A stretch of DNA of 24,296 nucleotides from Candidatus Tectimicrobiota bacterium (GTDB taxonomy: Bacteria; JACPUC01): the NCBI GenBank assembly GCA_016192455.1, contig JACPUC010000008.1, positions 310,001-334,296 on the forward strand, written 5' to 3'. Positions 1-10,587 of the stretch are shown here, piece after piece. The position numbers were made by a program, and so were the translations under genes. Numbering within the stretch: position 1 is the stretch's first letter; every line of letters begins with the position of its first letter. The notes under the pieces were generated by a model. It had not been told where the DNA came from. It made no database searches and saw only the letters and a program-made list of their open reading frames with translations.

Positions 1-2
1 AG

Positions 3-293
3 GAAGGCTCGCTCCCCAGCGATGAGCTGCGCCTTGCCGTCCTCGTGGGCTTCCTGGGGGCCTTCACGACCTTCTCGACGTTCAGCTTCGAGGCGGGTAT
101 GCTATTGCGCTCCGCGCAGTGGTGGTGGGCGGCGGGCTACCTCCTGCTGAGCAATATCGCGGGCGTTGTTCTGGCGCTTGCAGGCATGACGCTCGTGCGC
201 GTATTCTACAGGGGCGCTCGGCAAGCCGGGCCGTTGGCTCGGCTCTTCGCCACGGCCGAAGAAATTTCGTTGCAGGGTCGAGAGAGCGGCTGA
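3..293 (+). CDS. crcB: Fluoride efflux channel FluC/CrcB, 5'-truncated by window edge
   Basis: Frame is open from the window start (EGSLPSDELRLAVLVGFLGAFTTFSTFSFE). GFLGAFTTFSTF is the FluC signature and is followed by a hydrophobic helix. Confidence 0.93.
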   Translation, partial: EGSLPSDELRLAVLVGFLGAFTTFSTFSFEAGMLLRSAQWWWAAGYLLLSNIAGVVLALAGMTLVRVFYRGARQAGPLARLFATAEEISLQGRESG

Positions 294-423
294 CGCCCCT
301 GCCCTCGCCGCGAATGCCTTGCGCGCGCGCCGAATCAGGCAAGCGAACTGGACCCGCGGAGGTAACGCCGCAGCCCTCCCACGAAGGCAATGGAGCGCTG
401 CGCTGGAGCTTGAAGGACCGCCG

Positions 424-1878
424 ATGCAGCAACGAAGCAGGAAACTCCTGTCGCGCCTTGCTCTTGCCGCCCCCGCCCTGCTGGGTGCGCTGCTCTGGTC
501 GCTCTGGTTCACGGCGCCGAGCTGGGCCGAAGCAACCGCCGCCGCGCCCGCCGCCGGCGTGGCGCCGTCGCTGCAGGCGCAGCGCCAGGTTCTCCCGAAC
601 GGTCTCGTCGTGCTCGTGGCCCAGAAGCGCAAGCTCCCCATTCTGCGGGCGCAGCTCCTGCTGCGCGTTGGCGCGGCGCACGAGCCCGAGATCCAGGCGG
701 GGCTGGTGAACCTCCTGGCGGCCCTCCTCGACAAGGGGGCTGGAGAGCGCAGCGCGGCTGAGATCGCCGAGACCATCGAGTTCCTTGGCGGCAGTCTGAG
801 CGTCGACGCCTCGGCCTTCACCCTGGAGGTCGAGCTGGAGGTCCTCTCGAAGGACAGCACGCCCGGCTTCGAGCTCCTCCGGGATGTGGTGCGCCGGGCG
901 ACCTTCGCCCCGGCCGAGGTGGAGCGCGCCCGCGCCGCAATCCTCTCCGAGCTGGCGCGGCGCGCCGAGAACCCGAACCAGGTCGCCGCTGATGCCTTCC
1001 GCGAGCTCCTCTACGGCGAGCATCCCTTGCATCGCCCCGTGGAAGGCTACGAGAGGACCGTCGCCAAGCTGACGCGGGAAGACGTCGTGGCGTTCTACGA
1101 TCGCTTCGTGCGACCCGGGCACGGCATCCTGGTCATCGTCTCCGACCTGCCGGCCGAGCGCATGCTGGCCCTGGCGCGGGCCGCCTTCGACTCCTGGGAA
1201 CGCGGCGCGGCAGCGGTGCCCGAGGTTCCCGCGGCGGCGGCGCCCCGCGGCCTGCGGGTGCGGGTGGTGGACCGCGAGGTCAACCAGTCCTACGTGCAGC
1301 TCGGCCACCTGGGAGTGCCGCGCGCCAGCCCCGACTACAACGCCGCGCGCGCCATGAACTACATCCTGGGCGGCAGCGGCTTCTCGTCGCGCCTCTACGA
1401 GACGGTGCGCGAGCAGCACGGTCTGGCGTACTCGGTGCACTCTTACTTCCAGCCGCAGGGGCGCGGGCCGGGGAGGTTCGAGGTGGGGCTGCAGACGAAG
1501 ATCGCCAGCACCTCGCAGGCCCTCGACGAGGTCTTCCGCGAGCTGGAGCGCATGCGCCAGGCGCCGGTGAGCGCCGACGAGCTGAAGGCGACGCAGGAGT
1601 ACTACCGCGGCTCCCTGCCGCGCCTGACGGAGCGCTATGGCCAGGTCGCCGAGCTGCTCCTCACCCAGGAATACCACGGCCTGCCGGCGGAGTTCTGGCG
1701 ACACGACATCGACGCCATCGAGCGCCTGACGGCGGCGGACATCCAGCGCGCCGCCAAGCAGTACCTCCACCCGCGCGACCTCGTCGTTTCCATCGCCACG
1801 AAGCGGGCCGAGCTGAAGCTGACCACCCCCGCCCTGCAAGGGGCGGAGATGCTCCCCGGCGACGGCGCGGCGCGCTGA
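424..1878 (+). CDS. M16 (pitrilysin/insulinase) family peptidase homologue, secreted, probably non-catalytic subunit
   Basis: ATG 424 follows GAAGGA. Signal peptide-like N-terminus; LPNGLVV, HPLHRPVEG, LGGSGFSSRLYETVREQHGLAYSV motifs. The HXXEH position reads NLLAA. Confidence 0.88.
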   Translation: MQQRSRKLLSRLALAAPALLGALLWSLWFTAPSWAEATAAAPAAGVAPSLQAQRQVLPNGLVVLVAQKRKLPILRAQLLLRVGAAHEPEIQAGLVNLLAALLDKGAGERSAAEIAETIEFLGGSLSVDASAFTLEVELEVLSKDSTPGFELLRDVVRRATFAPAEVERARAAILSELARRAENPNQVAADAFRELLYGEHPLHRPVEGYERTVAKLTREDVVAFYDRFVRPGHGILVIVSDLPAERMLALARAAFDSWERGAAAVPEVPAAAAPRGLRVRVVDREVNQSYVQLGHLGVPRASPDYNAARAMNYILGGSGFSSRLYETVREQHGLAYSVHSYFQPQGRGPGRFEVGLQTKIASTSQALDEVFRELERMRQAPVSADELKATQEYYRGSLPRLTERYGQVAELLLTQEYHGLPAEFWRHDIDAIERLTAADIQRAAKQYLHPRDLVVSIATKRAELKLTTPALQGAEMLPGDGAAR

Positions 1879-1887
1879 CGTAGTACC

Positions 1888-1915
1888 CCACGAATTTCGC
1901 GCTCTCAATTCGTGG
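1888..1915 (+). terminator. Inverted repeat just downstream of the M16 gene, possible terminator
   Basis: CCACGAATT-N10-AATTCGTGG followed by AGATTTTT, between convergent genes. Confidence 0.45.
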
Positions 1916-1936
1916 AGATTTTTACCGCGAGGGAAC

Positions 1937-1956
1937 CTCGCCCCCTCGCGCACCCC
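1937..1956 (+). repeat. 20-bp dispersed intergenic repeat, copy 1
   Basis: CTCGCCCCCTCGCGCACCCC; exact reverse complement at 13127-13146. Confidence 0.75.
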
Positions 1957-2080
1957 ATGTACGCGAGCTGCGCGGTAGCCCGCGCAGCCCCCACGCCCCC
2001 CCGGCGTGCCTGAGGCTTTCACCACCTCACCACATTCCCGCCACCCCTTCCGTCAGCGTCTCCCTCGACGAGCCTCACTC

Positions 2081-3298
2081 TCATGATGACGCGACGGATG
2101 CCTTCACCGTTTCGGCGCGCAGCAGCTCCCGTTCCGGCTCCGGCATCGGCAGGCGGCTGAAGACGAGGAACATCCACAGCGCCAGCATGCCGAGCGCGCC
2201 GGCGGCGTAGTAGATCCACGCCACGCCGAGGAGGTTGAGGAGCGCGCCGCCGACAAAGCCGCTGCCGACCATGCCGACGCTCTGCGCCATCATGAACATC
2301 CCCTGCGAGGCCCCCATGCCGCAGTCGCGCCCGAACTCCACGGTGATCGCCGCCATCGTCGGCAGGAGGAGGGCGTCGGCAAGCCCCAGGACGAGGCTGC
2401 TGATCAGGAGCTGGGTGAAGGTGCCGCTGCGGGCGATGAGCACCAGGGAGAGGGTGTGGATGCCGATCCCCACCGCCATCAGCAGGCGCCGGTCAAATCG
2501 GTCGGCAAGCCAGCCGCAGGGCACCTGGAGCAACGTGCCCAGCATCAGCTCGAGGGTAAGCACCGTGCCGACACGGGTGCTGCTGATGCCGAGGCTTGAA
2601 CGGCCCAGGATCGGCAGGAAACTGAAGAGGGAGCCATGCCCCAACGCCGCCAGGGCGCGGAAGAGGAGGAAGCCCCGCAACGTCGGCACGCGCCAGAAGA
2701 GCCGCAAGGGGAGCGACCTGCCGGCCCCCTCCACGGCGCCCACCAAGAGGGGACGCGCCGGCAAGGCCAGCGCCACGAGCAGACCCGCCGCCAGGTTCAA
2801 GACTCCCGTGAGGGCGAACGCCGCCTGCAGGGACCAGGCATCCTTGACGTAGCCGCCCAGCATCGGCCCCACCCCGAACCCCGCGAACATGGCGATATTG
2901 AAGGCGCCCATGTAGCGCCCCTCGCGCAGGCGCGGCGTCAGGTCCCCGACGTAGGCCTGGGCGATCGGCAGCACCATGGCCGAGGCCACTCCCTGCACGA
3001 AGCGCAGGAGCACGATCTCGGTGAGGTCGTCAACCAGCGCGTAGGCGAGGCCGATGCCAGCCGAGGCGAAGAGGCCCCAGGTGATGAACGGTTTGCGCCG
3101 CGTGCGGTCAGACCAGCGACCGAACGCCGGCAGCGCCAGGGTGCGCGACACCGAGAAGGAGGAGAACATGAGCGCCAGCCACATGCCGCCGGCCCCCAGG
3201 TCCAGGGCATAGAGCGGCAGCAGCGGCACCACCACCCCGAGCCCGAACAGGGCGGCGAACGTGGCGCAGAAGAGGACGATGAACTCGCGTTGGAACAT
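2081..3298 (-). CDS. MFS transporter (DHA1/TetA-like)
   Basis: About 12 hydrophobic segments; motif A twice (GRWSDRTRRK, GWLADRFDRR); RFVQG; GFGVGPMLGG. Start placed at MFQREF because the upstream extension is not protein-like. Confidence 0.9.
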   Translation of the reverse strand: MFQREFIVLFCATFAALFGLGVVVPLLPLYALDLGAGGMWLALMFSSFSVSRTLALPAFGRWSDRTRRKPFITWGLFASAGIGLAYALVDDLTEIVLLRFVQGVASAMVLPIAQAYVGDLTPRLREGRYMGAFNIAMFAGFGVGPMLGGYVKDAWSLQAAFALTGVLNLAAGLLVALALPARPLLVGAVEGAGRSLPLRLFWRVPTLRGFLLFRALAALGHGSLFSFLPILGRSSLGISSTRVGTVLTLELMLGTLLQVPCGWLADRFDRRLLMAVGIGIHTLSLVLIARSGTFTQLLISSLVLGLADALLLPTMAAITVEFGRDCGMGASQGMFMMAQSVGMVGSGFVGGALLNLLGVAWIYYAAGALGMLALWMFLVFSRLPMPEPERELLRAETVKASVASS

Positions 3299-3672
3299 GA
3301 TCCGACCTGCAGCAGCCCGCACGACTCCTGGCGGGGAGGGGAGTGGGGCTGGAACGTGCTGGACTGTGGCACGGTGCAGCCGCGAGGTAAAGGGCAAAGC
3401 CAGCGCCGCCACAACTTCACCCTCATGCCGAGGAGTCGATCCTGTCGCTTCCCCGCCCCGATCCCTTCGCGGAGCCGCGGTGATTCCCTTCGCGGGCGAC
3501 CCTGCGCCGGGGGGCGCCAGGCGGACGCGGTCGCTGTTTCGAACGGGCCTCCACTTCGGCTTCAAGAGAGCAAGGGGCCCGGCCGACCTGTCCCCCAGGC
3601 GGCTGCCCCAGCGGGAGTTCCGCCAGCCGCTGTCACTCGGCGAGGTCGTGGTCCCCTTCTGTTAAGCAGTTC

Positions 3673-3720
3673 ACACAAGATCTGGTAAGGGTTTTGGCAG
3701 TTAACCACAATATACGCAAA
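3673..3720. promoter_or_regulatory. Weaker tandem pair of NrdR-box-like sites
   Basis: ACACAAGATCTGGTAA (3673-3688) and CCACAATATACGCAAA (3705-3720), starts 32 bp apart. Partial match to acaCwAtATaTwGtgt; the second site matches only in its left half. Confidence 0.4.
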
Positions 3721-3897
3721 GATCCCCCTGATTTCAGCCGCTAAGCCCGCCGCCACGCGAAACGCCACAGGATGCCAGGAATACGGCACAAGATTCAGGA
3801 AATCAACGTGTTCCGGTCTACCCCTGGATTCGACACGGTCCGTTCCGGCAACGGCTCGTACGGACGCCATGCAGGGAGGAGGTTAAGATTTTGGCTG

Positions 3898-3945
3898 CCA
3901 CTATATCTTGTGCTGTCTTTCTGGCTCCTCTCCAATATCTTGTAT
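3898..3945. promoter_or_regulatory. Tandem NrdR-box-like operator pair
   Basis: CCACTATATCTTGTGC (3898-3913) and CTCCAATATCTTGTAT (3930-3945) match the NrdR consensus core and are 32 bp apart. TTGACA follows at 3953-3958. Confidence 0.68.
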
Positions 3946-4195
3946 TTTTCTCTTGACAACTTCGTTCTCTAGTGGAATCGTATGGCGAAGGTAAGTCCTG
4001 TCGGCAAGGGGCGGCAGGGCAGCAGCATGCAGGGGAGTCCAAGGTTCTGAGAAGCGGCATGTATGGCGCGCCTTCGTGTCACGCCGGGAACGCCACAGCG
4101 ACGGGGTGAGGGGCCGCGCGCGCGGCGGCATTCGCCACCGGGGCGCTTGGGCATCGAGGCAGGTCAGGAGGCTGGCATTGCAGGGGAGAGGAACG

Positions 4196-4855
4196 ATGAA
4201 GTTCAAGGAACGTATTCGCGAGCTTCGCACCGCATTGGGCCTCTCGCAGCGGCAGTTCGCCGAGGTGGCGGGGCTCAGCACCACGGCGATCTACTACTAC
4301 GAGTGTGGCCGGCGCATCCCGCGCGAGAAGAGCTTGCAGAAGATCATCTCCTCCTTCCACATCAGCCCGAAGAAGTTCTACAACGGGCTGCGCCTCCAGG
4401 AAGAGCGCCAGGGGCGCAAGATTTACATGGAGGCGGAGTGGCTGCGCTCGCTCTACGTGGATCAGGGCTTCACGGCAGCCCAGATCGCCCGCCTGCGGAG
4501 TTGCAGCAAGTCCGCCGTCCTCTCCAGGCTGCGGGAGTACAACATCGAGCGCCGGCCCCGCTTTGGCCGTTCCGGCCCGCAGAGGATTATGAGCCATCCC
4601 GAGGTGGTGCAGGAGCTCTTGGCGAACCGCTTCGAGTGCCAGGAATGGTTGGGTCTCCTGCCGTCCACGGAGGCATGGGTGTTGACCCGCCGTCTCGGTC
4701 TCCTCGGCGAGCGGGTGCACACCCTGCAGGAGCTGGGCAATTCGTTGGGGCTGACGCGCGAGCGCATCCGCCAGATTCAGAACAGCGGCCTTGATCGTCT
4801 GCGCCGCCTGCACGTGACCGCCCCGACCTTCGTGCGCGCCGTCGCGGCTGGCTAG
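4196..4855 (+). CDS. Multi-HTH transcription regulator: XRE HTH + central HTH + sigma70 region-4-like domain
   Basis: ATG 4196 follows GGGGAGAGG. XRE: IRELRTALGLSQRQFAEVAGLSTTAIYYYECGRRIP. Second HTH: WLRSLYVDQGFTAAQIARLRSCSKSAVLSRLREYNI. Sigma4: VLTRRLGL..HTLQELGNSLGLTRERIRQIQNSGLDRLR. Confidence 0.88.
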   Translation: MKFKERIRELRTALGLSQRQFAEVAGLSTTAIYYYECGRRIPREKSLQKIISSFHISPKKFYNGLRLQEERQGRKIYMEAEWLRSLYVDQGFTAAQIARLRSCSKSAVLSRLREYNIERRPRFGRSGPQRIMSHPEVVQELLANRFECQEWLGLLPSTEAWVLTRRLGLLGERVHTLQELGNSLGLTRERIRQIQNSGLDRLRRLHVTAPTFVRAVAAG

Positions 4856-4961
4856 CGGGACATCTGAAGCGTGCGTTGGCGGATTTGATCCGTTCCAGGT
4901 GGCGTTGGTAGGCTGGTTTCTTGTAGGGAAGCCTTGCTCCTCTCCACTTCTCACATCGGTT

Positions 4962-4994
4962 CCCTCTCTTCTTGGGAGAGGGGCCGGGGTGAGG
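4962..4994. repeat. REP-like palindromic element
   Basis: CCCTCTCTT-CTT-GGGAGAGGG followed by GCCGGGGTGAGG, the widespread CCTCACCCCxxCCCTCTCCC-type intergenic repeat, between convergent genes. Confidence 0.6.
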
Positions 4995-5103
4995 TTTGGC
5001 CGGGGGGGCGCGGATTCGACGCCTCCCTGACATCCTGTCTCGCAGGCGAGGGATACGGTCTCCCCGGCGGTCTCTCGCCTTCGTCCCGGGGCGCGCCGCG
5101 CCA

Positions 5104-6057
5104 TCATTCCCTCCCCGCCTCTTGCCGCACAAATAGCTCGATTGCCGGCAGGGTCTCGAGCACCAGCTCGCCCACCACTTTGAGGCTCTTCAAGCTCAGC
5201 TTATCCAGGGTATCCTCGGCGGTGTGCCAGAACGGTCCCGGCTCCGTTGCCGCGCCGTACGAGAAGTCGATGAGGTCGACGGCGGGGATACCGGCCCGCC
5301 GGAAGGGGAGGTGGTCATCCTGAATGCTCGACTCCCGGCTGCTGAAGAACCCTTCCAACCGCAGGCGACGGGCGCTCTCCAGGAAGAGCCCGAGGAGCGC
5401 GGGTGAGGAGAACCCTTCCCGCAGGAGGTTGAGGTCACGGTCGCCGACGAGGTCCAGGATCACCGCGGCCTTGATCGCCGCCAGCCATCCCTCCTCCTCC
5501 CCCACCTCGATGAAATGCCGGCTGCCGTACAGTCCATCGACTGACGAGAAGTCCCGCAAGGCCTCTTCGCCATCGAAGAAGACAAAGAGCAGGGTCAAGC
5601 GCTGGGGCTTGGCGGCAAGCACGCGCGCCAGCTCCAGGAGCACCCCGACGCCCGATCCCCCATCATTGGCCCCCACAAAGGTGAAGGTGGAAAAGAGCTT
5701 CGTGTCGTAGTGGCAGGCCAGCACCAGGGCCGCCGGCTCCTCTCCCGCCAGGATGCCGACGATGTTGGTCATCTCCATCTCACCGAGCGGGGTCGCGGCG
5801 GTGAAACGCTGCAGCTCCACGCGCAGTCCCGCCGCCTCGAGCTGCTTCGCGAGGTACTCCTGGACTCGGCGCGACGCCGCCGTTCCGGGCGGATGCGGAC
5901 CGAAGTCAACGAAACGCTTGACGTGCTCGTAGGCGCGCGCGGCATCGAAGCGGGGCGCAGCCGGGAGAAGCGTGGTGGGGGCGCTTTGCGCCGCGAGAGG
6001 AAGGACTACCAGCCAGCTCAGGAGCATGGGTGGGAGGAGGCGGAGACGACGACGCAC
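5104..6057 (-). CDS. M28 family zinc enzyme, glutaminyl-peptide cyclotransferase-like, with signal peptide
   Basis: LACHYDTK, GANDGGSG, FFDGEEA, DGLYGSRH, LDLVG, IQDDHLPF and WHTAEDT parallel the motifs of animal-type glutaminyl cyclase. Confidence 0.85.
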   Translation of the reverse strand: MRRRLRLLPPMLLSWLVVLPLAAQSAPTTLLPAAPRFDAARAYEHVKRFVDFGPHPPGTAASRRVQEYLAKQLEAAGLRVELQRFTAATPLGEMEMTNIVGILAGEEPAALVLACHYDTKLFSTFTFVGANDGGSGVGVLLELARVLAAKPQRLTLLFVFFDGEEALRDFSSVDGLYGSRHFIEVGEEEGWLAAIKAAVILDLVGDRDLNLLREGFSSPALLGLFLESARRLRLEGFFSSRESSIQDDHLPFRRAGIPAVDLIDFSYGAATEPGPFWHTAEDTLDKLSLKSLKVVGELVLETLPAIELFVRQEAGRE

Positions 6058-6293
6058 GGTGAGAACTTACCGGAAGGGAAGAGGTGCGGCACGCTGTTCA
6101 GGTCTGCGTGGTCCTGCGCTTGCCCGCGCCAGCCAATCGTACGTGAAGTGCGCGGCTGTGGCAAGGAAGCTGCCTTCGCTCAGCTCGTCGGGAGCTTGGC
6201 ACGAACCGCGGTGGGGTTCTCGAGCGTGCGACCGGGAGGGAGCCTTGGCGCCGCGATGGTCGGGAATCCGCCGCCGGAGCGCGCGGTCGGCGA

Positions 6294-6863
6294 TCAGACC
6301 CTTCTCACCTTGGCCAGCCAGCGACGCACGGTGGCGAGGCGGATGTTCGCCGGCAGCGCCTGAAGCGCGGTAACGAGATCGTAGAGCTCTTCATCGGCCT
6401 CGGCGCGCAAGACGATGGGAGCCGCGCTCTCCTGCTTGGAGCGTGGGAGCGGAGCGGCGCCGCCGCCGGCCGGCAGCGCCGTCCCCCGCGCAAGGGGCGC
6501 GCGCATCACATACTCGGATGGTTCCTCGCGCACGCCGCCTGAACGGGCAACAAAAGCCGCATCGACGAGGTAGCCCTCCACCCCCCGCAGCCCCGGCCCC
6601 TGGCGCGCGAGGCGCGCCGGAACACGCTCCTCCCACTGGATAGGCGCCTCCTCCTGGAAGCCGAGCAACCAGTCGGCACTGACGTCGAAGACGCTACAGA
6701 TCTTCTTCAGGAGATTGCGGCTCAACCCCTGCTTGCCCGATTCAATCACCGAGATGAAGGCGCGCGACATGCCAAGGCGCCGAGCAAACTCGGCCTGCGT
6801 GAGGCCGTGCCCTTGCCGCAGCAACCGCAGTCGAGCAGAAGGATTGCTTTTATTTGTTGACAT
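6294..6863 (-). CDS. XRE-family HTH transcriptional regulator (XRE-A)
   Basis: RLRLLRQGHGLTQAEFARRLGMSRAFISVIESGKQGLS...FDVSADWLLG, then a low-complexity linker and a short helical C-terminal domain. Confidence 0.88.
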   Translation of the reverse strand: MSTNKSNPSARLRLLRQGHGLTQAEFARRLGMSRAFISVIESGKQGLSRNLLKKICSVFDVSADWLLGFQEEAPIQWEERVPARLARQGPGLRGVEGYLVDAAFVARSGGVREEPSEYVMRAPLARGTALPAGGGAAPLPRSKQESAAPIVLRAEADEELYDLVTALQALPANIRLATVRRWLAKVRRV

Positions 6864-6885
6864 CCTGTTGATCCACGCCTATCTT
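6857..6885 (+). promoter_or_regulatory. sigma70-type promoter overlapping the XRE-A start codon on the opposite strand
   Basis: TTGACA (6857-6862), 17 bp, TATCTT (6880-6885), with an AT-rich tract upstream. Confidence 0.55.
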
Positions 6886-7164
6886 CAGGGTTGAGGCGGC
6901 GAACCGTGACGCCAAGGCGGTCCCGGGGCCGCGCCGGCTCTCTCCCGCCTCTGGGTCGCCGCCGGCGGCGCGGCAGGGCGTCGCCGCTGGCGGTCCCCTG
7001 CGGTCGGTCGCACGCTTCTCGCCTCGGCGGAGCGTTGCTGCTCGGCGTGCGCCTGAAGAACGCCGAACGCGCCTCGGCGCGTCGCCCGCGAGCGCAAGAG
7101 AGGTGAAACTCGCTGAGAAAACGACTTCGGCAAAGGCACCAACGTAGGTGTGATTCATTCACTC

Positions 7165-7193
7165 TGTGTAGAACGCTATAGGCGCCGTGTCAA
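7165..7193 (-). promoter_or_regulatory. Candidate sigma70-type promoter for XRE-A
   Basis: Minus strand TTGACA (7193-7188), 17 bp, TACACA; the -10 is weak. Confidence 0.45.
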
Positions 7194-7427
7194 CACCTCT
7201 TTGCAGAAATGCAAGGTGAGTGGCAGACAAGGAGCAAGGCAAGCATGACTGCGATCCCCGCGCGGGAGGGTGGCCGATCAAGGCGGCCGCCGCAAGTCGA
7301 AGCAGGGAGCCACGCGGAGCCAGGCGCCTGTCGCCTGCTCAGATCTCGCTGCAGCACGCCGATCCTCTTCGAACTGGAGATCGTTGCTTCACAACAAAGG
7401 ATGACGATGATCATAAATCACAAACAT

Positions 7428-7452
7428 CTTATTTCTGTATATCAAAAATAAG
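7428..7452. promoter_or_regulatory. 25-bp AT-rich imperfect palindrome, candidate operator
   Basis: CTTATTT-C-TG-TATAT-CA-A-AAATAAG. Confidence 0.4.
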
Positions 7453-7572
7453 CGTTTTGCTTTTAACATGAGAGAAAATCGTGTCCACTGCCTGTCACCC
7501 CATGCAGTGATCAAGGGAGAAAAAATTCGCCCCGGAAAGATCTTCAAGCTTCAAAAAGTCGTTGCAGAAAGT

Positions 7573-7601
7573 TCGACACTTTGCTAAATAGACTCTATAC
7601 T
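7573..7601 (+). promoter_or_regulatory. sigma70-type promoter for XRE-B/immA
   Basis: TCGACA (7573-7578), 17 bp, TATACT (7596-7601). The -35 lies within the palindrome AAAGT-N5-ACTTT (7568-7582). Confidence 0.6.
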
Positions 7602-7920
7602 TGATTATACAAAGTACTGCTACTACTGGTTTGGTCTCATTCGGGACTGTGGTGGAGGGGAACAGGGAGGGCACTGTGGCGGCATGGGCGGTCGAGCTTT
7701 ACCTCCCCCATTCCCTGCTGCCACTCATCGCCGGCCTGGAGGGGTCTTCGATGAGCTTTCATGGTGGCGCTGCACGCCACACCACGGCGTGGATCGCTGC
7801 CCCTGGCCGGGACGAAACCTGAAGTTCGAGACTCTACCATAAATCAGGCTGCTTTGGGCGGCAGCCTGGGCAGCGTAGACAGGCGGCCTGCTGGCGAAAG
7901 GAGCCAGAGGAGGCCAGAAG

Positions 7921-7951
7921 GGGTTATCCACAGCGAGCCCGTGGATCACCC
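7921..7951. promoter_or_regulatory. Inverted repeat containing a perfect DnaA box
   Basis: GGGTTATCCAC-N9-GTGGATCACCC. TTATCCACA at 7924-7932 and an inverted 2-mismatch copy at 7940-7948. Confidence 0.5.
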
Positions 7952-7985
7952 GCTTCGTTCGACCATGACAGAGAAGGCGCTACCC

Positions 7986-8402
7986 ATGGACATCGGTTCA
8001 TTCATTCGCATGCACAGGAAACGACTCGACTTGACGCAGGAAGATATCGCCCGGGCGCTCGGCTACGACAACTACCAGATGATCTCCAATATCGAGCGCG
8101 GCATCGCCTCGCTGCCAAAGTTCAAGGTGCCGAAACTCGCTGAAATCCTGCAGGTGGCGGAGGCGGACATCCTGGACACCAGCTTCAAGGGACGGAAGCT
8201 CGGTGAGAACCGCGATATCCGGGTGCTCTTCGAGCGCGGCATGAACCAGCGCAAGTCAGCCATGTCCGTCGTGATTGACAAGGAGGATGAACCCGAGTTA
8301 TACCGCATTATCACCAGGGTGCGAAACTCGAAGGTGCGGGACAAGTTCATCTCCATCGCCAATACCCTGCTTGACCTTGAACCGGAAGAGCGGCAGAACT
8401 AG
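7986..8402 (+). CDS. XRE-family HTH transcriptional regulator (XRE-B; ImmR/DdrO/CapH-like role inferred)
   Basis: MDIGSFIRMHRKRLDLTQEDIARALGYDNYQMISNIERGIASLP; ATG 7986 follows GAGAAGG (alternative ATG at 7965); directly upstream of the ImmA/IrrE gene. Confidence 0.9.
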   Translation: MDIGSFIRMHRKRLDLTQEDIARALGYDNYQMISNIERGIASLPKFKVPKLAEILQVAEADILDTSFKGRKLGENRDIRVLFERGMNQRKSAMSVVIDKEDEPELYRIITRVRNSKVRDKFISIANTLLDLEPEERQN

Positions 8403-8469
8403 CGCGCACGACGAGCGCTCGCGGACCTAGCCTACGGGGTGGGAGAGACGCCACCAAGGTAGTCGCCTG

Positions 8470-9039
8470 ATGTTGTCGCGCACGAACGAAATCATCAGAA
8501 GCGTCACCGAGATTCATCTCGCCACGCGCTTCACCGATCCGCCGTTCAGTGTGCGCGAGTTCTCGAAGTACTACCCCGCCTTTCAATTTCAGGCCTCCAC
8601 CGACCTGCCGGCCGGCATCGACGGCCAGCTCGTCGTGCAGGACGGGCGCAACTACGTCTTTTTTCGCAAGGGACAGTCGCACGTCCGTAACCGCTTCACG
8701 ATCTGTCACGAAGTCGGCCATGCCTTCCTGCACGTCGAGGAGGAGGCATTCAAGTGCGATGCGGTGGAACATCGCGGCCGCGACTACTTCCTCCATCGTC
8801 CCATCAAGGAGCAGGAAGCCGACTTCTTCGCCGCGGAACTGCTCGTTCCACTCCCCATGCTGGATCGCTTCGTCCTCGATGATTTGAATACCGTGAAGGA
8901 GAAGGAACACCAAGAGCTTGTGCGGGTGCTGGCGGAGAAGTTCATGGTCTCCAAACCGTGCATGCAGCTCCGTCTGGAAGACCTCAACGACATTCGCCGC
9001 ACCACTGCTGGGCGGGGCGTCTATCTGAAGCGAGCGTAA
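8470..9039 (+). CDS. ImmA/IrrE family zinc metallo-endopeptidase
   Basis: RNRFTICHEVGH (HEXXH), EQEADFFAAELLVP, and C-terminal HTH-like LAEKFMVSKPCMQLRL. Confidence 0.93.
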   Translation: MLSRTNEIIRSVTEIHLATRFTDPPFSVREFSKYYPAFQFQASTDLPAGIDGQLVVQDGRNYVFFRKGQSHVRNRFTICHEVGHAFLHVEEEAFKCDAVEHRGRDYFLHRPIKEQEADFFAAELLVPLPMLDRFVLDDLNTVKEKEHQELVRVLAEKFMVSKPCMQLRLEDLNDIRRTTAGRGVYLKRA

Positions 9040-9215
9040 CGCCCGCGTCCCGCCGGCAGGGCGCGAGCTGCAACGGGGCGACCGGCGACCCCGCGGCTGC
9101 CTGCCGCCGGCGAGCTCCCGCCTTCGGCTTTACGGCGCCGGCATCCTGGCCGCGGCCCGTGGAGCACGCGGCTGCCGCGCCGCGCTTCACGGCACGCCCC
9201 CGGTCCCTCCTTCAG

Positions 9216-10394
9216 CTATTCCATCCTCCCGATCACTCCCTGCTCGATGAGGTCGGCGATCTCCCCCTCCTGGTAGCCGAGCTCGCGCAGCAAGCTCTCG
9301 GAATGCGCCCCGCGAGGCGGAGGCGGGGTGTCGGTTAGGCGTTGCGCCCCGGTGACGCGCAGGGGCGACCCCACCTGGATGGACCCCGGAACCACGTCCG
9401 CGCGCCCCATGCCGCGCGCCGCCACCTGCGGATCGGCAAGGACCTCGTCGAGCCGCCGCACCGACCCCCAGGCCACCTCCCGACCGGCCAGCAAGGCTTC
9501 CCATTCCGCCAGCGTGCGGCTGGCCATGAGCGCCTCGAGGCGCTCCCGCAGCTCCGGGTGCTCGTGCAGGGGGGTGAATTGCGCCTCAATGAGGTCGGGG
9601 CGCTCCACCAGGGTGCAGAAGGCGCGCCAGAACTTCTCCTCCAGGTTGCCCAGGGTGAGGAAGCGGCCGTCCTTGGTGCGATAGACGTTGTAGCAGGGGG
9701 CGCCGCCGGTGAAGTGTCCGCTTCCCCGCTGCGGCATCTCGCCGCTGGCGAGCAAGCGCTCGAGGTGGAACCCGAGCATGGCGACGACGCAATCGAGCAT
9801 GGCGACGTCGACGTAGCAGCCCCGCCCGGTGCGCTCCCGCTGCAGCAAGCCGATCAGCAAGCCGATGCAGGCCATCATGCCGCCGGCCAGGTCGGCGGTC
9901 AGCACGCCGGGGATAACGGGGGGGCCGTTGTGCGGGCCGTTCAAATCGAGGGCGCCGCCGAAGGCCATGTAGTTGACATCATGCCCCACCCAGGTGCGGT
10001 AGGGCCCCTCCTGCCCGTAGCCGCTGAGCGAGCAGTAGACGAGCTGCGGGTTCAGGCGATGCAGCTCCTCCACCCCAAGCCCAAGCTGGGCCATGACCCC
10101 GGGGCGGAACCCCTCCAGCAGCCCCTGCGCCGTCGCCGCCAGGCGCCGAAACGCCTCCCGTCCGGCCGGCGCCTTCAGATTGATCATCAGGCTCTTCTTG
10201 TTGCGATGCACCGAGTAGGGGGGGGCGAAGCCGCCCAGCTCAGGGCGCGGGGTGCGCAGAGGATTGGTGCCCTGGAGGTCTTCGATCATGATGACCTCGG
10301 CGCCATGGTCGGCGAGCAGCCAGGTGCCGAACGGACCCGGCAGGTGGCGGCAGAGATCGATGATTCGCAGACCGTTCAGCATCGAAAGCGGCAT
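9216..10394 (-). CDS. CaiB/BaiF family class III CoA-transferase (alpha-methylacyl-CoA racemase-like)
   Basis: LPGPFGTWLLADHGAEVI, RNKKSLMINLK, EGFRPGVM, SLSGYGQEGPY, GHDVNY, ADLAGG. Confidence 0.93.
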   Translation of the reverse strand: MPLSMLNGLRIIDLCRHLPGPFGTWLLADHGAEVIMIEDLQGTNPLRTPRPELGGFAPPYSVHRNKKSLMINLKAPAGREAFRRLAATAQGLLEGFRPGVMAQLGLGVEELHRLNPQLVYCSLSGYGQEGPYRTWVGHDVNYMAFGGALDLNGPHNGPPVIPGVLTADLAGGMMACIGLLIGLLQRERTGRGCYVDVAMLDCVVAMLGFHLERLLASGEMPQRGSGHFTGGAPCYNVYRTKDGRFLTLGNLEEKFWRAFCTLVERPDLIEAQFTPLHEHPELRERLEALMASRTLAEWEALLAGREVAWGSVRRLDEVLADPQVAARGMGRADVVPGSIQVGSPLRVTGAQRLTDTPPPPRGAHSESLLRELGYQEGEIADLIEQGVIGRME

Positions 10395-10587
10395 GGCATG
10401 CTCCCTCCGTCGTCATGGGGTGTCCGTCAGAAGGTTCAGGGGAACGCGGCGCATCTGGCATGGCGGCCCAACCCCGGCCCGTCGGCTGCGCGTTTGGCCC
10501 CGCGGCGACCTTGGCTGGGAGGCCCCGCCGCATCCTGCAAGCCGAGGAGCGCCACGGCCTCCGGCCCCGCCATCCCATCCCGGCGCG

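Follow-up and report, generated by a model that had tools for sequence, protein, structure and literature searches.

The stretch of DNA examined here (24,296 nucleotides, referred to below as the window) comes from a Candidatus Tectimicrobiota bacterium and forms the final 24.3 kb of contig C7 of its assembly, which comprises 4.46 Mb in 31 contigs, is 88% complete and has a GC content of 66.8%. Within 5.4 kb it carries four genes for regulatory proteins: XRE-HTH-sigma4, in which an XRE-type helix-turn-helix (HTH) domain precedes a second HTH and a sigma-70 region 4; two further XRE proteins, XRE-A and XRE-B; and an M78 peptidase of the ImmA/IrrE (COG2856) family. A gene map of positions 1-10400 was built from codon-position GC and Pfam, and Pfam confirmed the three XRE genes and the HEXXH protease that a preliminary description of this DNA had named. 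That description saw in them a regulator island flanked by housekeeping genes. The inventory stands, but the set is not uninterrupted, as a gene for an M28 aminopeptidase lies in its middle. The genes of this region and their control features are:

3898-3945, no strand assigned: tandem NrdR-type candidate operator, with box A at 3898-3913 (CCACTATATCTTGTGC), a 16-bp linker and box B at 3930-3945 (CTCCAATATCTTGTAT)
4196-4855, plus strand: XRE-HTH-sigma4 (Pfam HTH_3 2.5e-12, Sigma70_r4 4.4e-11)
5104-6057, minus strand: M28 aminopeptidase (Pfam Peptidase_M28 1.9e-39)
6164-6136, minus strand: promoter-like site of the M28 gene
6294-6863, minus strand: XRE-A (Pfam HTH_3 9.6e-15)
7573-7601, plus strand: promoter-like site (TCGACA, 17 nt, TATACT), which opens a block conserved upstream of XRE-B
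7921-7951, no strand assigned: inverted repeat GGGTTATCCAC-N9-GTGGATCACCC, with 11-nt arms that are 91% complementary, 35 bp upstream of the XRE-B start
7986-8402, plus strand: XRE-B (Pfam HTH_3 2.6e-7)
8470-9039, plus strand: M78/ImmA-IrrE HEXXH peptidase (Pfam PF06114 1.3e-14)

XRE-B and the M78 peptidase are encoded on the same strand, separated by 67 bp. XRE-B has 138 residues, made up of the HTH and a conserved C-terminal part of about 70 residues. Its true start is taken to be at 7986 and not at 7761, where an open reading frame (ORF) of 213 residues begins, because the four homologues found (132-138 residues, 64-99% identity, starting MDIGSF or MEIGAF) have no such N-terminal extension. 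The M78 peptidase has 189 residues and matches PF06114 with 54.5 bits against a curated cut-off of 22; its HEXXH motif is HEVGH, at residues 80-84. His80, Glu81, His84 and Glu114, which make up the HEXXH motif and the downstream glutamate zinc ligand, do not vary in any of the 66 relatives that were aligned and correspond to the residues His96, Glu97, His100 and Glu129 reported for CapP (Lau et al., bioRxiv 10.1101/2022.04.27.489752).

The resemblance to CapP extends beyond the active site. The best defence profile in PADLOC was capP (2.7e-23, covering profile positions 9-155 of 242), and the Thauera CapP structure 7t5t was the sole sequence match among solved structures (1.4e-5). An AlphaFold2 model of the peptidase, built on 58 sequences and with a predicted local distance difference test (pLDDT) score of 89.4, again had CapP as its best match in Foldseek (E 1.8e-6; template-modelling (TM) score 0.58 when normalised by the query, 0.42 when normalised by the target of 278 residues), followed by PprI/IrrE (8sln, 3dti). 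Cys96 of the window protein, in the sequence FKC, aligns with FQC of 7t5t, that is with Cys113 of CapP, which Lau et al. describe as the cysteine-switch residue that caps the zinc, in a loop that they find in 134 of 408 CBASS CapPs. A cysteine is present in the corresponding loop of 12 of the 66 M78 relatives, and in the window M78 this loop is modelled at low confidence; the acidic residues that follow the cysteine are at +1 and +4, compared with +3 and +4 in E. coli CapP. Arg73 is the equivalent of CapP Arg90, a residue reported to contact single-stranded DNA (PMC13228613), and is arginine in 64 of the 66 relatives. Judged by domains, residues and gene order, XRE-B and M78 thus appear to be an orphan two-gene COG2856/XRE switch, closest to CapH/CapP, which agrees with the earlier proposal of a protease-triggered switch of the ImmR/ImmA, DdrO/IrrE and CapH/CapP kind. 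Predictions of an M78-XRE-B complex scored 0.00 in both runs and provide no evidence either way.

Comparison with the characterised systems shows where the window pair departs from them. In the CapH/CapP systems of the E. coli MS115-1 and Thauera sp. K11 CBASS loci, as here, an XRE repressor gene is followed by a gene for an M78 zinc peptidase, but a defence operon lies divergently there and none does here. Peptidases of the COG2856 family act on their partner XRE repressor by cleaving it or by blocking its oligomerisation, and CapH consists of an XRE HTH and a short C-terminal oligomerisation domain in which the cleavage site lies. CapP itself is built of the peptidase, a central HTH and a C-terminal GAF domain, and in the model given for it (PMC13228613) single-stranded DNA lies in the peptidase-GAF groove while the HTH of CapH packs on the GAF domain. 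The window M78 ends at residue 189 and has no GAF domain, so that it cannot work exactly as CapP does. In ImmR/ImmA of the Bacillus subtilis element ICEBs1 a short, GAF-less M78 is likewise paired with an XRE protein, and there ImmA is reported to cleave ImmR (PMC6868357), as the window M78 may cleave its own partner. ImmR/ImmA is located in, and controls, a conjugative element, whereas no mobile genes were found in the window. By analogy ImmA may be the nearer functional counterpart of the window M78 than CapP is. ImmA is not known to have a cysteine-switch loop. The third comparison is with DdrO/IrrE (PprI) of Deinococcus, whose peptidase gave the second-best fold matches and which is a chromosomal, domesticated COG2856/XRE switch over host genes; it differs in that IrrE has a GAF-like domain and in having a defined multi-gene regulon motif. 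For the window pair no regulon was detected, since the motif of its inverted repeat is almost unique in the genome, which also encodes a canonical LexA.

The setting of the pair is unusual. Of 80 loci with a related M78, 35 have an XRE gene immediately before it on the same strand, six have overlapping gene calls and one has the two fused; no XRE was detected by a small hidden Markov model in 35, and in three an XRE is present only at a distance. (A search for related loci with the single M78 protein gave 94 pattern matches, none of which was confirmed.) The 146 neighbouring ORFs of 41 related XRE-M78 pairs belong most commonly to families linked with defence or mobility, namely ThiF (9), N6_Mtase (5), DUF6791, Eco57I and Multi_ubiq (4 each), Phage_integrase, ResIII and Prok-JAB (3 each) and SMODS (2), and capH-capP genes are reported usually to lie upstream of, and opposite to, the operon that they accompany (Lau et al.). 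The window pair stands without cargo, and its divergent neighbours are XRE-A and the M28 peptidase gene. In agreement with what had been noted for this region, the window ORFs that were scanned with Pfam included, apart from the regulators, no integrase, phage, conjugation, toxin or defence family, and searches of the five proteins of the region and five small ORFs against PADLOC and PHROGs matched only the regulators themselves. Because the neighbours of related pairs are so rich in defence and mobility families, the cargo-less state is unusual for the group. The pair would be a new member of the known COG2856/XRE family of switches, short in form, equipped with a cysteine switch and set apart by its lack of cargo.

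The closest genomic homologues of the M78 peptidase (37-40% identity) are also cargo-less, and come from two different metagenome-assembled genomes that differ in GC content (L021:1508-2492 and L022:5568-6543). Gene order in both is cysteine synthase, an XRE protein of 150-153 residues, a cysteine-switch M78 of 180 residues, an EpmA-like lysyl-tRNA-synthetase paralogue and a dihydrolipoyl-dehydrogenase-like protein. Gene ends overlap at XRE/M78 and at M78/epmA, and this is a second cargo-less pair amid housekeeping genes.

The non-coding DNA flanking the regulator genes is AT-richer than the genome (60% GC at 3566-4195 and 55% at 7131-7964, against 66.8%), so that the long AT-richer control regions of the preliminary description are real. 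Upstream of XRE-B the inverted repeat at 7921-7951 is a candidate operator for XRE-B, and one of its arms holds an exact match to the DnaA box. No motif shared between the control regions of XRE-B and of the sigma4 gene was found. The DnaA-like sites are the exact TTATCCACA at 7924 and a one-mismatch site at 3701; these two sites with at most one mismatch compare with 0.88 expected, and 22 of 100 shuffles gave two or more, so the sites do not form a cluster beyond chance and the suggested input from replication is not supported.

Near relatives of the window were obtained as contigs from independent groundwater studies (runs X7 and X9), which align to it with about 92% identity. In X7 one contig links the major facilitator superfamily (MFS) transporter gene, the sigma4 gene and M28, and another links M28, XRE-A, XRE-B and M78. 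Contigs of X7 and X9 align with the region upstream of XRE-B from 7533 and 7545 onward, and over 7545-8137 X9 shows 67 differences and five gaps, with the sequence upstream of 7986 looking non-coding. Within the stretch as seen in X9, divergence is lowest in XRE-B and M78, at 8 of 254 and 21 of 530 letters (3-4%), compared with 104 of 1313 in the MFS gene, 68 of 673 in M28 and 145 of 1234 in the M28/XRE-A contig (8-12%). This low divergence fits purifying selection acting on the pair. The order of the genes is thus retained, as a test of synteny would ask, but since the relatives are only about 8% diverged this says nothing about functional linkage; no second genome of the host phylum was present in the genome collection searched, and with near relatives alone to compare, the synteny check carries little weight.

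XRE-A, which is divergent from XRE-B, has 189 residues; its C-terminal half, behind the HTH, is of low confidence and probably disordered, and the protein has no second copy in the genome. The two proteins had been described as related. They gave a BLASTP E value of 0.044, and hhalign found 33% identity over 52 HTH columns and left the C-terminal parts unmatched, so that the relatedness stands for the HTH fold, which is all that they have in common, and not for the remainder. XRE-A does match the PADLOC capH profile (6.5e-10, profile positions 9-82 of 103), and the XRE partner of M78 in L022 resembles it (E 1e-7, 36% over 102 residues) more than it resembles XRE-B (E 0.073). XRE-A also sits in the divergent position that is held by cargo in CapH/CapP loci. 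It may therefore be regulated by the switch, or cleaved by it; the evidence is thin and may reflect only a more canonical HTH. A search of the ESM Atlas with residues 70-189 gave a best score of 0.82 with TM below 0.3, and no lead.

The M28 gene, between the sigma4 gene and XRE-A, encodes a protein with a signal peptide and has a 49%-identical paralogue on contig C31. It is an ordinary secreted housekeeping-type enzyme gene, outside any regulator system. Relatives of the regulators were near none of 80 metagenome loci with an M28 homologue of 40-53% identity, which says little as the organisms are distant.

XRE-HTH-sigma4 is a protein of 219 residues in which the XRE HTH (residues 1-62) is followed by a middle three-helix HTH (80-114) and sigma-70 region 4 (135-208), and its AlphaFold2 model (pLDDT 81.5) has three helical DNA-binding domains. 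Region 4 aligns with that of E. coli RpoS over 61 residues (E 2.7e-12), including the recognition helix (LTRERIRQIQ compared with LTRERVRQIQ). Pfam detected no Sigma70 region 2 or region 3, and NCBIfam sigma models match only at their C-terminal ends, far below their cut-offs. The absence of region 2, the part of sigma factors for core binding and -10 recognition, means that this is not a sigma factor; it shares region 4 with group 1/2 sigma factors such as RpoS and SigA, but lacks regions 2 and 3 and carries region 4 fused behind the XRE HTH and the second HTH. The motif GGGGAGAGG precedes its ATG.

Three further full-length paralogues (45-51% identity) are dispersed in the genome. One has an AI-2E transporter and a riboflavin kinase as neighbours, the second an RNase_T exonuclease together with an EamA transporter, and the third a PilZ protein and a protein of unknown kind; none of the three lies beside an XRE or M78 gene, nor near the two other M78 genes of the genome. 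The family is small: full-length relatives numbered five in a word-indexed search of 5.8 billion proteins, and three near-full-length representatives matching in a single stretch were found among the best 150 of 1.84 billion proteins. When the family alignment was searched against genomes, 80 loci were among the matches listed, all of them matching from residue 75 onward only and being sigma factor genes. A limited literature search did not find the combination of XRE and sigma region 4, which does not show it to be unpublished. XRE-HTH-sigma4 would be an independent regulator belonging to a small, lineage-restricted family.

Most of the strong matches to XRE-HTH-sigma4 are long proteins (P0021 of 1002 residues, P0022 of 703 residues, and others) with 3-10 matching stretches, that is, arrays of repeated HTHs. 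All four paralogues in the genome (the window gene and those at L012-L014) have 600-900 bp of non-coding DNA upstream, each with a promoter-like AT-rich patch some 200-245 bp before the start codon and then a GC-rich leader. The 9-mers shared upstream of the four were GC-rich chance words only.

Between the NrdR-type box pair and the start of XRE-HTH-sigma4 there are about 250 bp, and a TTGACA at 3953-3958 follows the pair after 7 bp. NrdR sites are described as two partially palindromic 16-bp boxes with six conserved positions and a 15-16 bp linker (PMC13584703), and boxes A and B, which make a canonical pair, each have all six (C4, A6, A8, T9, T11 and G13). Genome-wide, 294 single boxes meet these six positions, and six pairs are found at 31-32 bp start to start, compared with three pairs over 61 other spacings. 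The six are at C1:186573, C7:247484, C9:151647, C15:17254, C23:240881 and window position 3898; one of them is the promoter of the ribonucleotide reductase, where the boxes are 32 bp apart start to start. The genome has one ribonucleotide reductase and encodes NrdR at C20:13495-13932, with a score of 189.6 bits where the cut-off is 124.65. The window site shares its two-box architecture with the published operators and with the genome's own reductase promoter, but differs in standing before a transcription-factor gene, just upstream of a -35-like hexamer, where the reductase boxes lie over the promoter. The input from NrdR and deoxynucleoside triphosphate (dNTP) status proposed earlier for the whole region would accordingly hold for the XRE-HTH-sigma4 gene only. 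Taken together, the six pairs suggest an extended NrdR regulon.

The sequence ATATCTTGT occurs eight times in the genome, with two copies in the window, one in the promoter of the reductase and another some 100 bp ahead of CTP synthase. A single NrdR-type box without a partner, 15 nt of it identical to box A, is found at L268:3868-3883 (G000:C28:69868-69883), where kdsB and pyrG, the gene for CTP synthase, are 186 bp apart; it precedes pyrG by about 100 bp. The genome contains 60 occurrences of ATCTTGTG or its complement, and the copies at 3674, 3787 and 3905 of the window make up the genome's only three-site cluster (within 240 bp). Two of the three are outside the NrdR pair and in opposite orientation, and could be extra half-sites or the operator of another protein.

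We think it probable, with appreciable room for doubt, that the stretch is made up of separate units, namely the orphan XRE-B/M78 switch, the independent XRE-HTH-sigma4 regulator and an ordinary M28 gene, and is not one island; XRE-HTH-sigma4 with its NrdR-type operator probably lies beside the pair without connection to it. In such an arrangement XRE-B would bind the inverted repeat at 7921-7951 and repress its own operon, while the Cys96 loop over the zinc site would keep M78 latent. A stress signal would open the loop, upon which M78 would cut XRE-B, either in the conserved linker or in the conserved C-terminal region, and so lift the repression. The trigger need not be single-stranded DNA as in CapP, because M78 has no GAF domain, which in CapP and IrrE forms half of the groove. 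The divergent XRE-A gene would be the only local candidate for a regulated output. Expression of XRE-HTH-sigma4, for its part, may be tied to the ATP/dATP state sensed by NrdR.

Several observations weigh against this interpretation. It explains the proximity of the four regulators, kept in the relatives, only by chance and recent common descent. XRE-B has no match to the PADLOC capH profile at E 0.01 or better, and because it is XRE-A that matches both this profile and the XRE partner in L022, the true substrate of M78 could be XRE-A, or both proteins. The 1.1-kb non-coding gap, at the place where related pairs bear defence operons, fits lost cargo as well as it fits domestication. The repeat motifs upstream of XRE-B were picked after inspection of the sequence and their statistics are indicative only: ATCCAC-N5..13-GTGGAT occurs three times in the genome, GTGGAT[CA]A 165 times, with three copies in 6864-7985 of which one lies over the ribosome-binding region of XRE-A, and TCCAC-N9-GTGGA is mildly enriched (17 occurrences against 2-11 at other spacings), with multiples of three all high. 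As to NrdR, the other four pairs adjoin genes with no evident role in nucleotide metabolism (their ORFs are not annotated), such as an RNase III-like gene on C23, and part of the pairs may be non-functional. In the X7 relative, moreover, positions 3417-4141 are replaced by 748 unlike letters, so that conservation of the NrdR boxes is evident only among near-identical strains. A genome-wide regulon for the XRE-B inverted repeat was considered and rejected, given three occurrences of the motif and no clear enrichment of its looser form.

The strongest rival, which we nevertheless regard as unlikely, is that XRE-B and M78 are a decayed remnant, the control module left over after a defence system or mobile element lost its cargo, and now without a target. 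Such an origin would be in line with the defence and mobility families that are commonest beside the 41 related pairs, with the fact that the usual operon position is here taken up by non-coding DNA and XRE-A, the AT-richer gap being a possible leftover, and with another M78 of the same genome, an XRE-M78 fusion that lies in a type I restriction-modification locus near an integrase. The low GC of the segment 7001-9000, which at 57.7% falls in the lowest 3.1% of the genome's 2-kb windows, also fits, but GC at third codon positions (GC3) is 0.80 in XRE-B, 0.78 in M78, 0.78 in XRE-A and 0.83 in M28, which is host-like codon usage. At second positions XRE-B and M78 have 0.33-0.35. The low GC of the pair therefore reflects its amino-acid composition, and the deficit of the segment comes from the first two codon positions and from non-coding DNA; a recent horizontal transfer was rejected on the host-like GC3, and the pair looks resident, not freshly acquired. 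Against decay, both genes are intact and are the least diverged in X9, an indication of purifying selection. In the gap, the five small ORFs had no match in PADLOC or PHROGs, a search of the window found no tRNA, and none of the five tyrosine-integrase matches of the genome is on the window's contig. A 38-nt direct repeat (6932-6969 and 9105-9142) that flanks the pair was considered as an insertion scar and rejected, as 41 of 300 shuffles reach an equal score. The L021 and L022 pairs, finally, are likewise cargo-less, in a conserved housekeeping setting. From the sequence, a retained, working orphan switch is rated above a dead remnant, and a history of lost cargo would be compatible with it.

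That the four regulators form one domesticated circuit, in which M78 cuts XRE-B and/or XRE-A, the sigma4 protein is the output and NrdR supplies nucleotide status, we think quite improbable. The four genes do lie within 5.4 kb in an order retained in X7 and X9, the NrdR operator looks genuine, XRE-A resembles CapH and is transcribed divergently from XRE-B, and copies of GTGGATCA occur within the sigma4 gene (4457) and over the ribosome-binding region of XRE-A (6869-6876). But no XRE or M78 gene adjoins any of the three sigma4 paralogues, the unrelated M28 gene intervenes with a promoter-like site of its own, the two control regions have no common motif, and the roughly 92% identity of the relatives makes a kept order expected without function. 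In X7, too, the DNA upstream of the sigma4 gene has diverged past alignment, while the block upstream of XRE-B is retained. The four-gene cascade of the preliminary description is therefore not supported, and it is mainly because the neighbours of its paralogues are unrelated that the sigma4 protein is not accepted as an output of the protease.

More doubtful still is a two-arm replication-stress circuit, in which a GAF-less cysteine-switch M78 would sense damage and cut XRE-B and/or XRE-A, while the NrdR-gated sigma4 protein would act as a sigma mimic. If this were true, an RpoS-like region 4 would occupy -35 elements or the beta-flap of RNA polymerase upon a shift in dNTPs, and nucleotide status would reprogramme promoter choice through a carrier of region 4 that is not a sigma factor. 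A selfish toxin-antitoxin-like cassette, with M78 as toxin and XRE-B as antitoxin, is scarcely credible: the pair is compact and cargo-less, and Xre-COG2856 is listed among predicted toxin-antitoxin-like mobile two-gene modules (Makarova et al. 2009, PMC2701414), but that paper itself prefers a model in which the protease cleaves the repressor, over-produced COG2856 proteins are reported to be non-toxic in Streptococcus pneumoniae and E. coli (PMC4257102), and the characterised ImmA, IrrE and CapP pairs are regulators (PMC6868357; PMC13228613; Lau et al.).

If the separate orphan switch and independent regulator that we favour are borne out, each would have a consequence of its own. A working short M78 that has the cysteine switch of CapP and no GAF domain would imply a second way of opening the switch, and the cargo-less CapH/CapP-like pairs of the window, L021 and L022 raise the question of whether such pairs have been co-opted to control regulons of the host, as in Deinococcus. 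An NrdR operator before a regulator gene would extend a repressor usually held to be specific for ribonucleotide reductase, and would do so by way of a rare protein that bears sigma region 4 outside a sigma factor.

The genome has two M78 genes besides that of the window. One, at L184:3012-12153 (G000:C9:134012-143153), encodes a fused XRE-M78 of 384 residues, with a type I restriction R subunit on one side and an HsdM methylase on the other; a tyrosine integrase is found about 2 kb beyond this locus, at C9:145035, a typical defence-island setting that contrasts with that of the window pair.

The other genes mapped within 1-10400 are:

Start of the map: CrcB fragment
319-1878, plus strand: M16 peptidase
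2081-3565, minus strand: MFS transporter
9216-10394, minus strand: family III CoA-transferase

A search of the whole window against Rfam gave no match at E 1 or better. According to Pfam, the remaining genes of the window encode an AIR-synthase-related protein, two SPFH proteins, MgsA, a periplasmic binding protein, two oligopeptide ABC ATPases, and BNR and Kelch repeat proteins. The first 90 or so residues of the MFS ORF look non-coding, with the Pfam MFS_1 match beginning at residue 98, and for this reason the gap before XRE-HTH-sigma4 may truly be near 890 bp (3302-4195).

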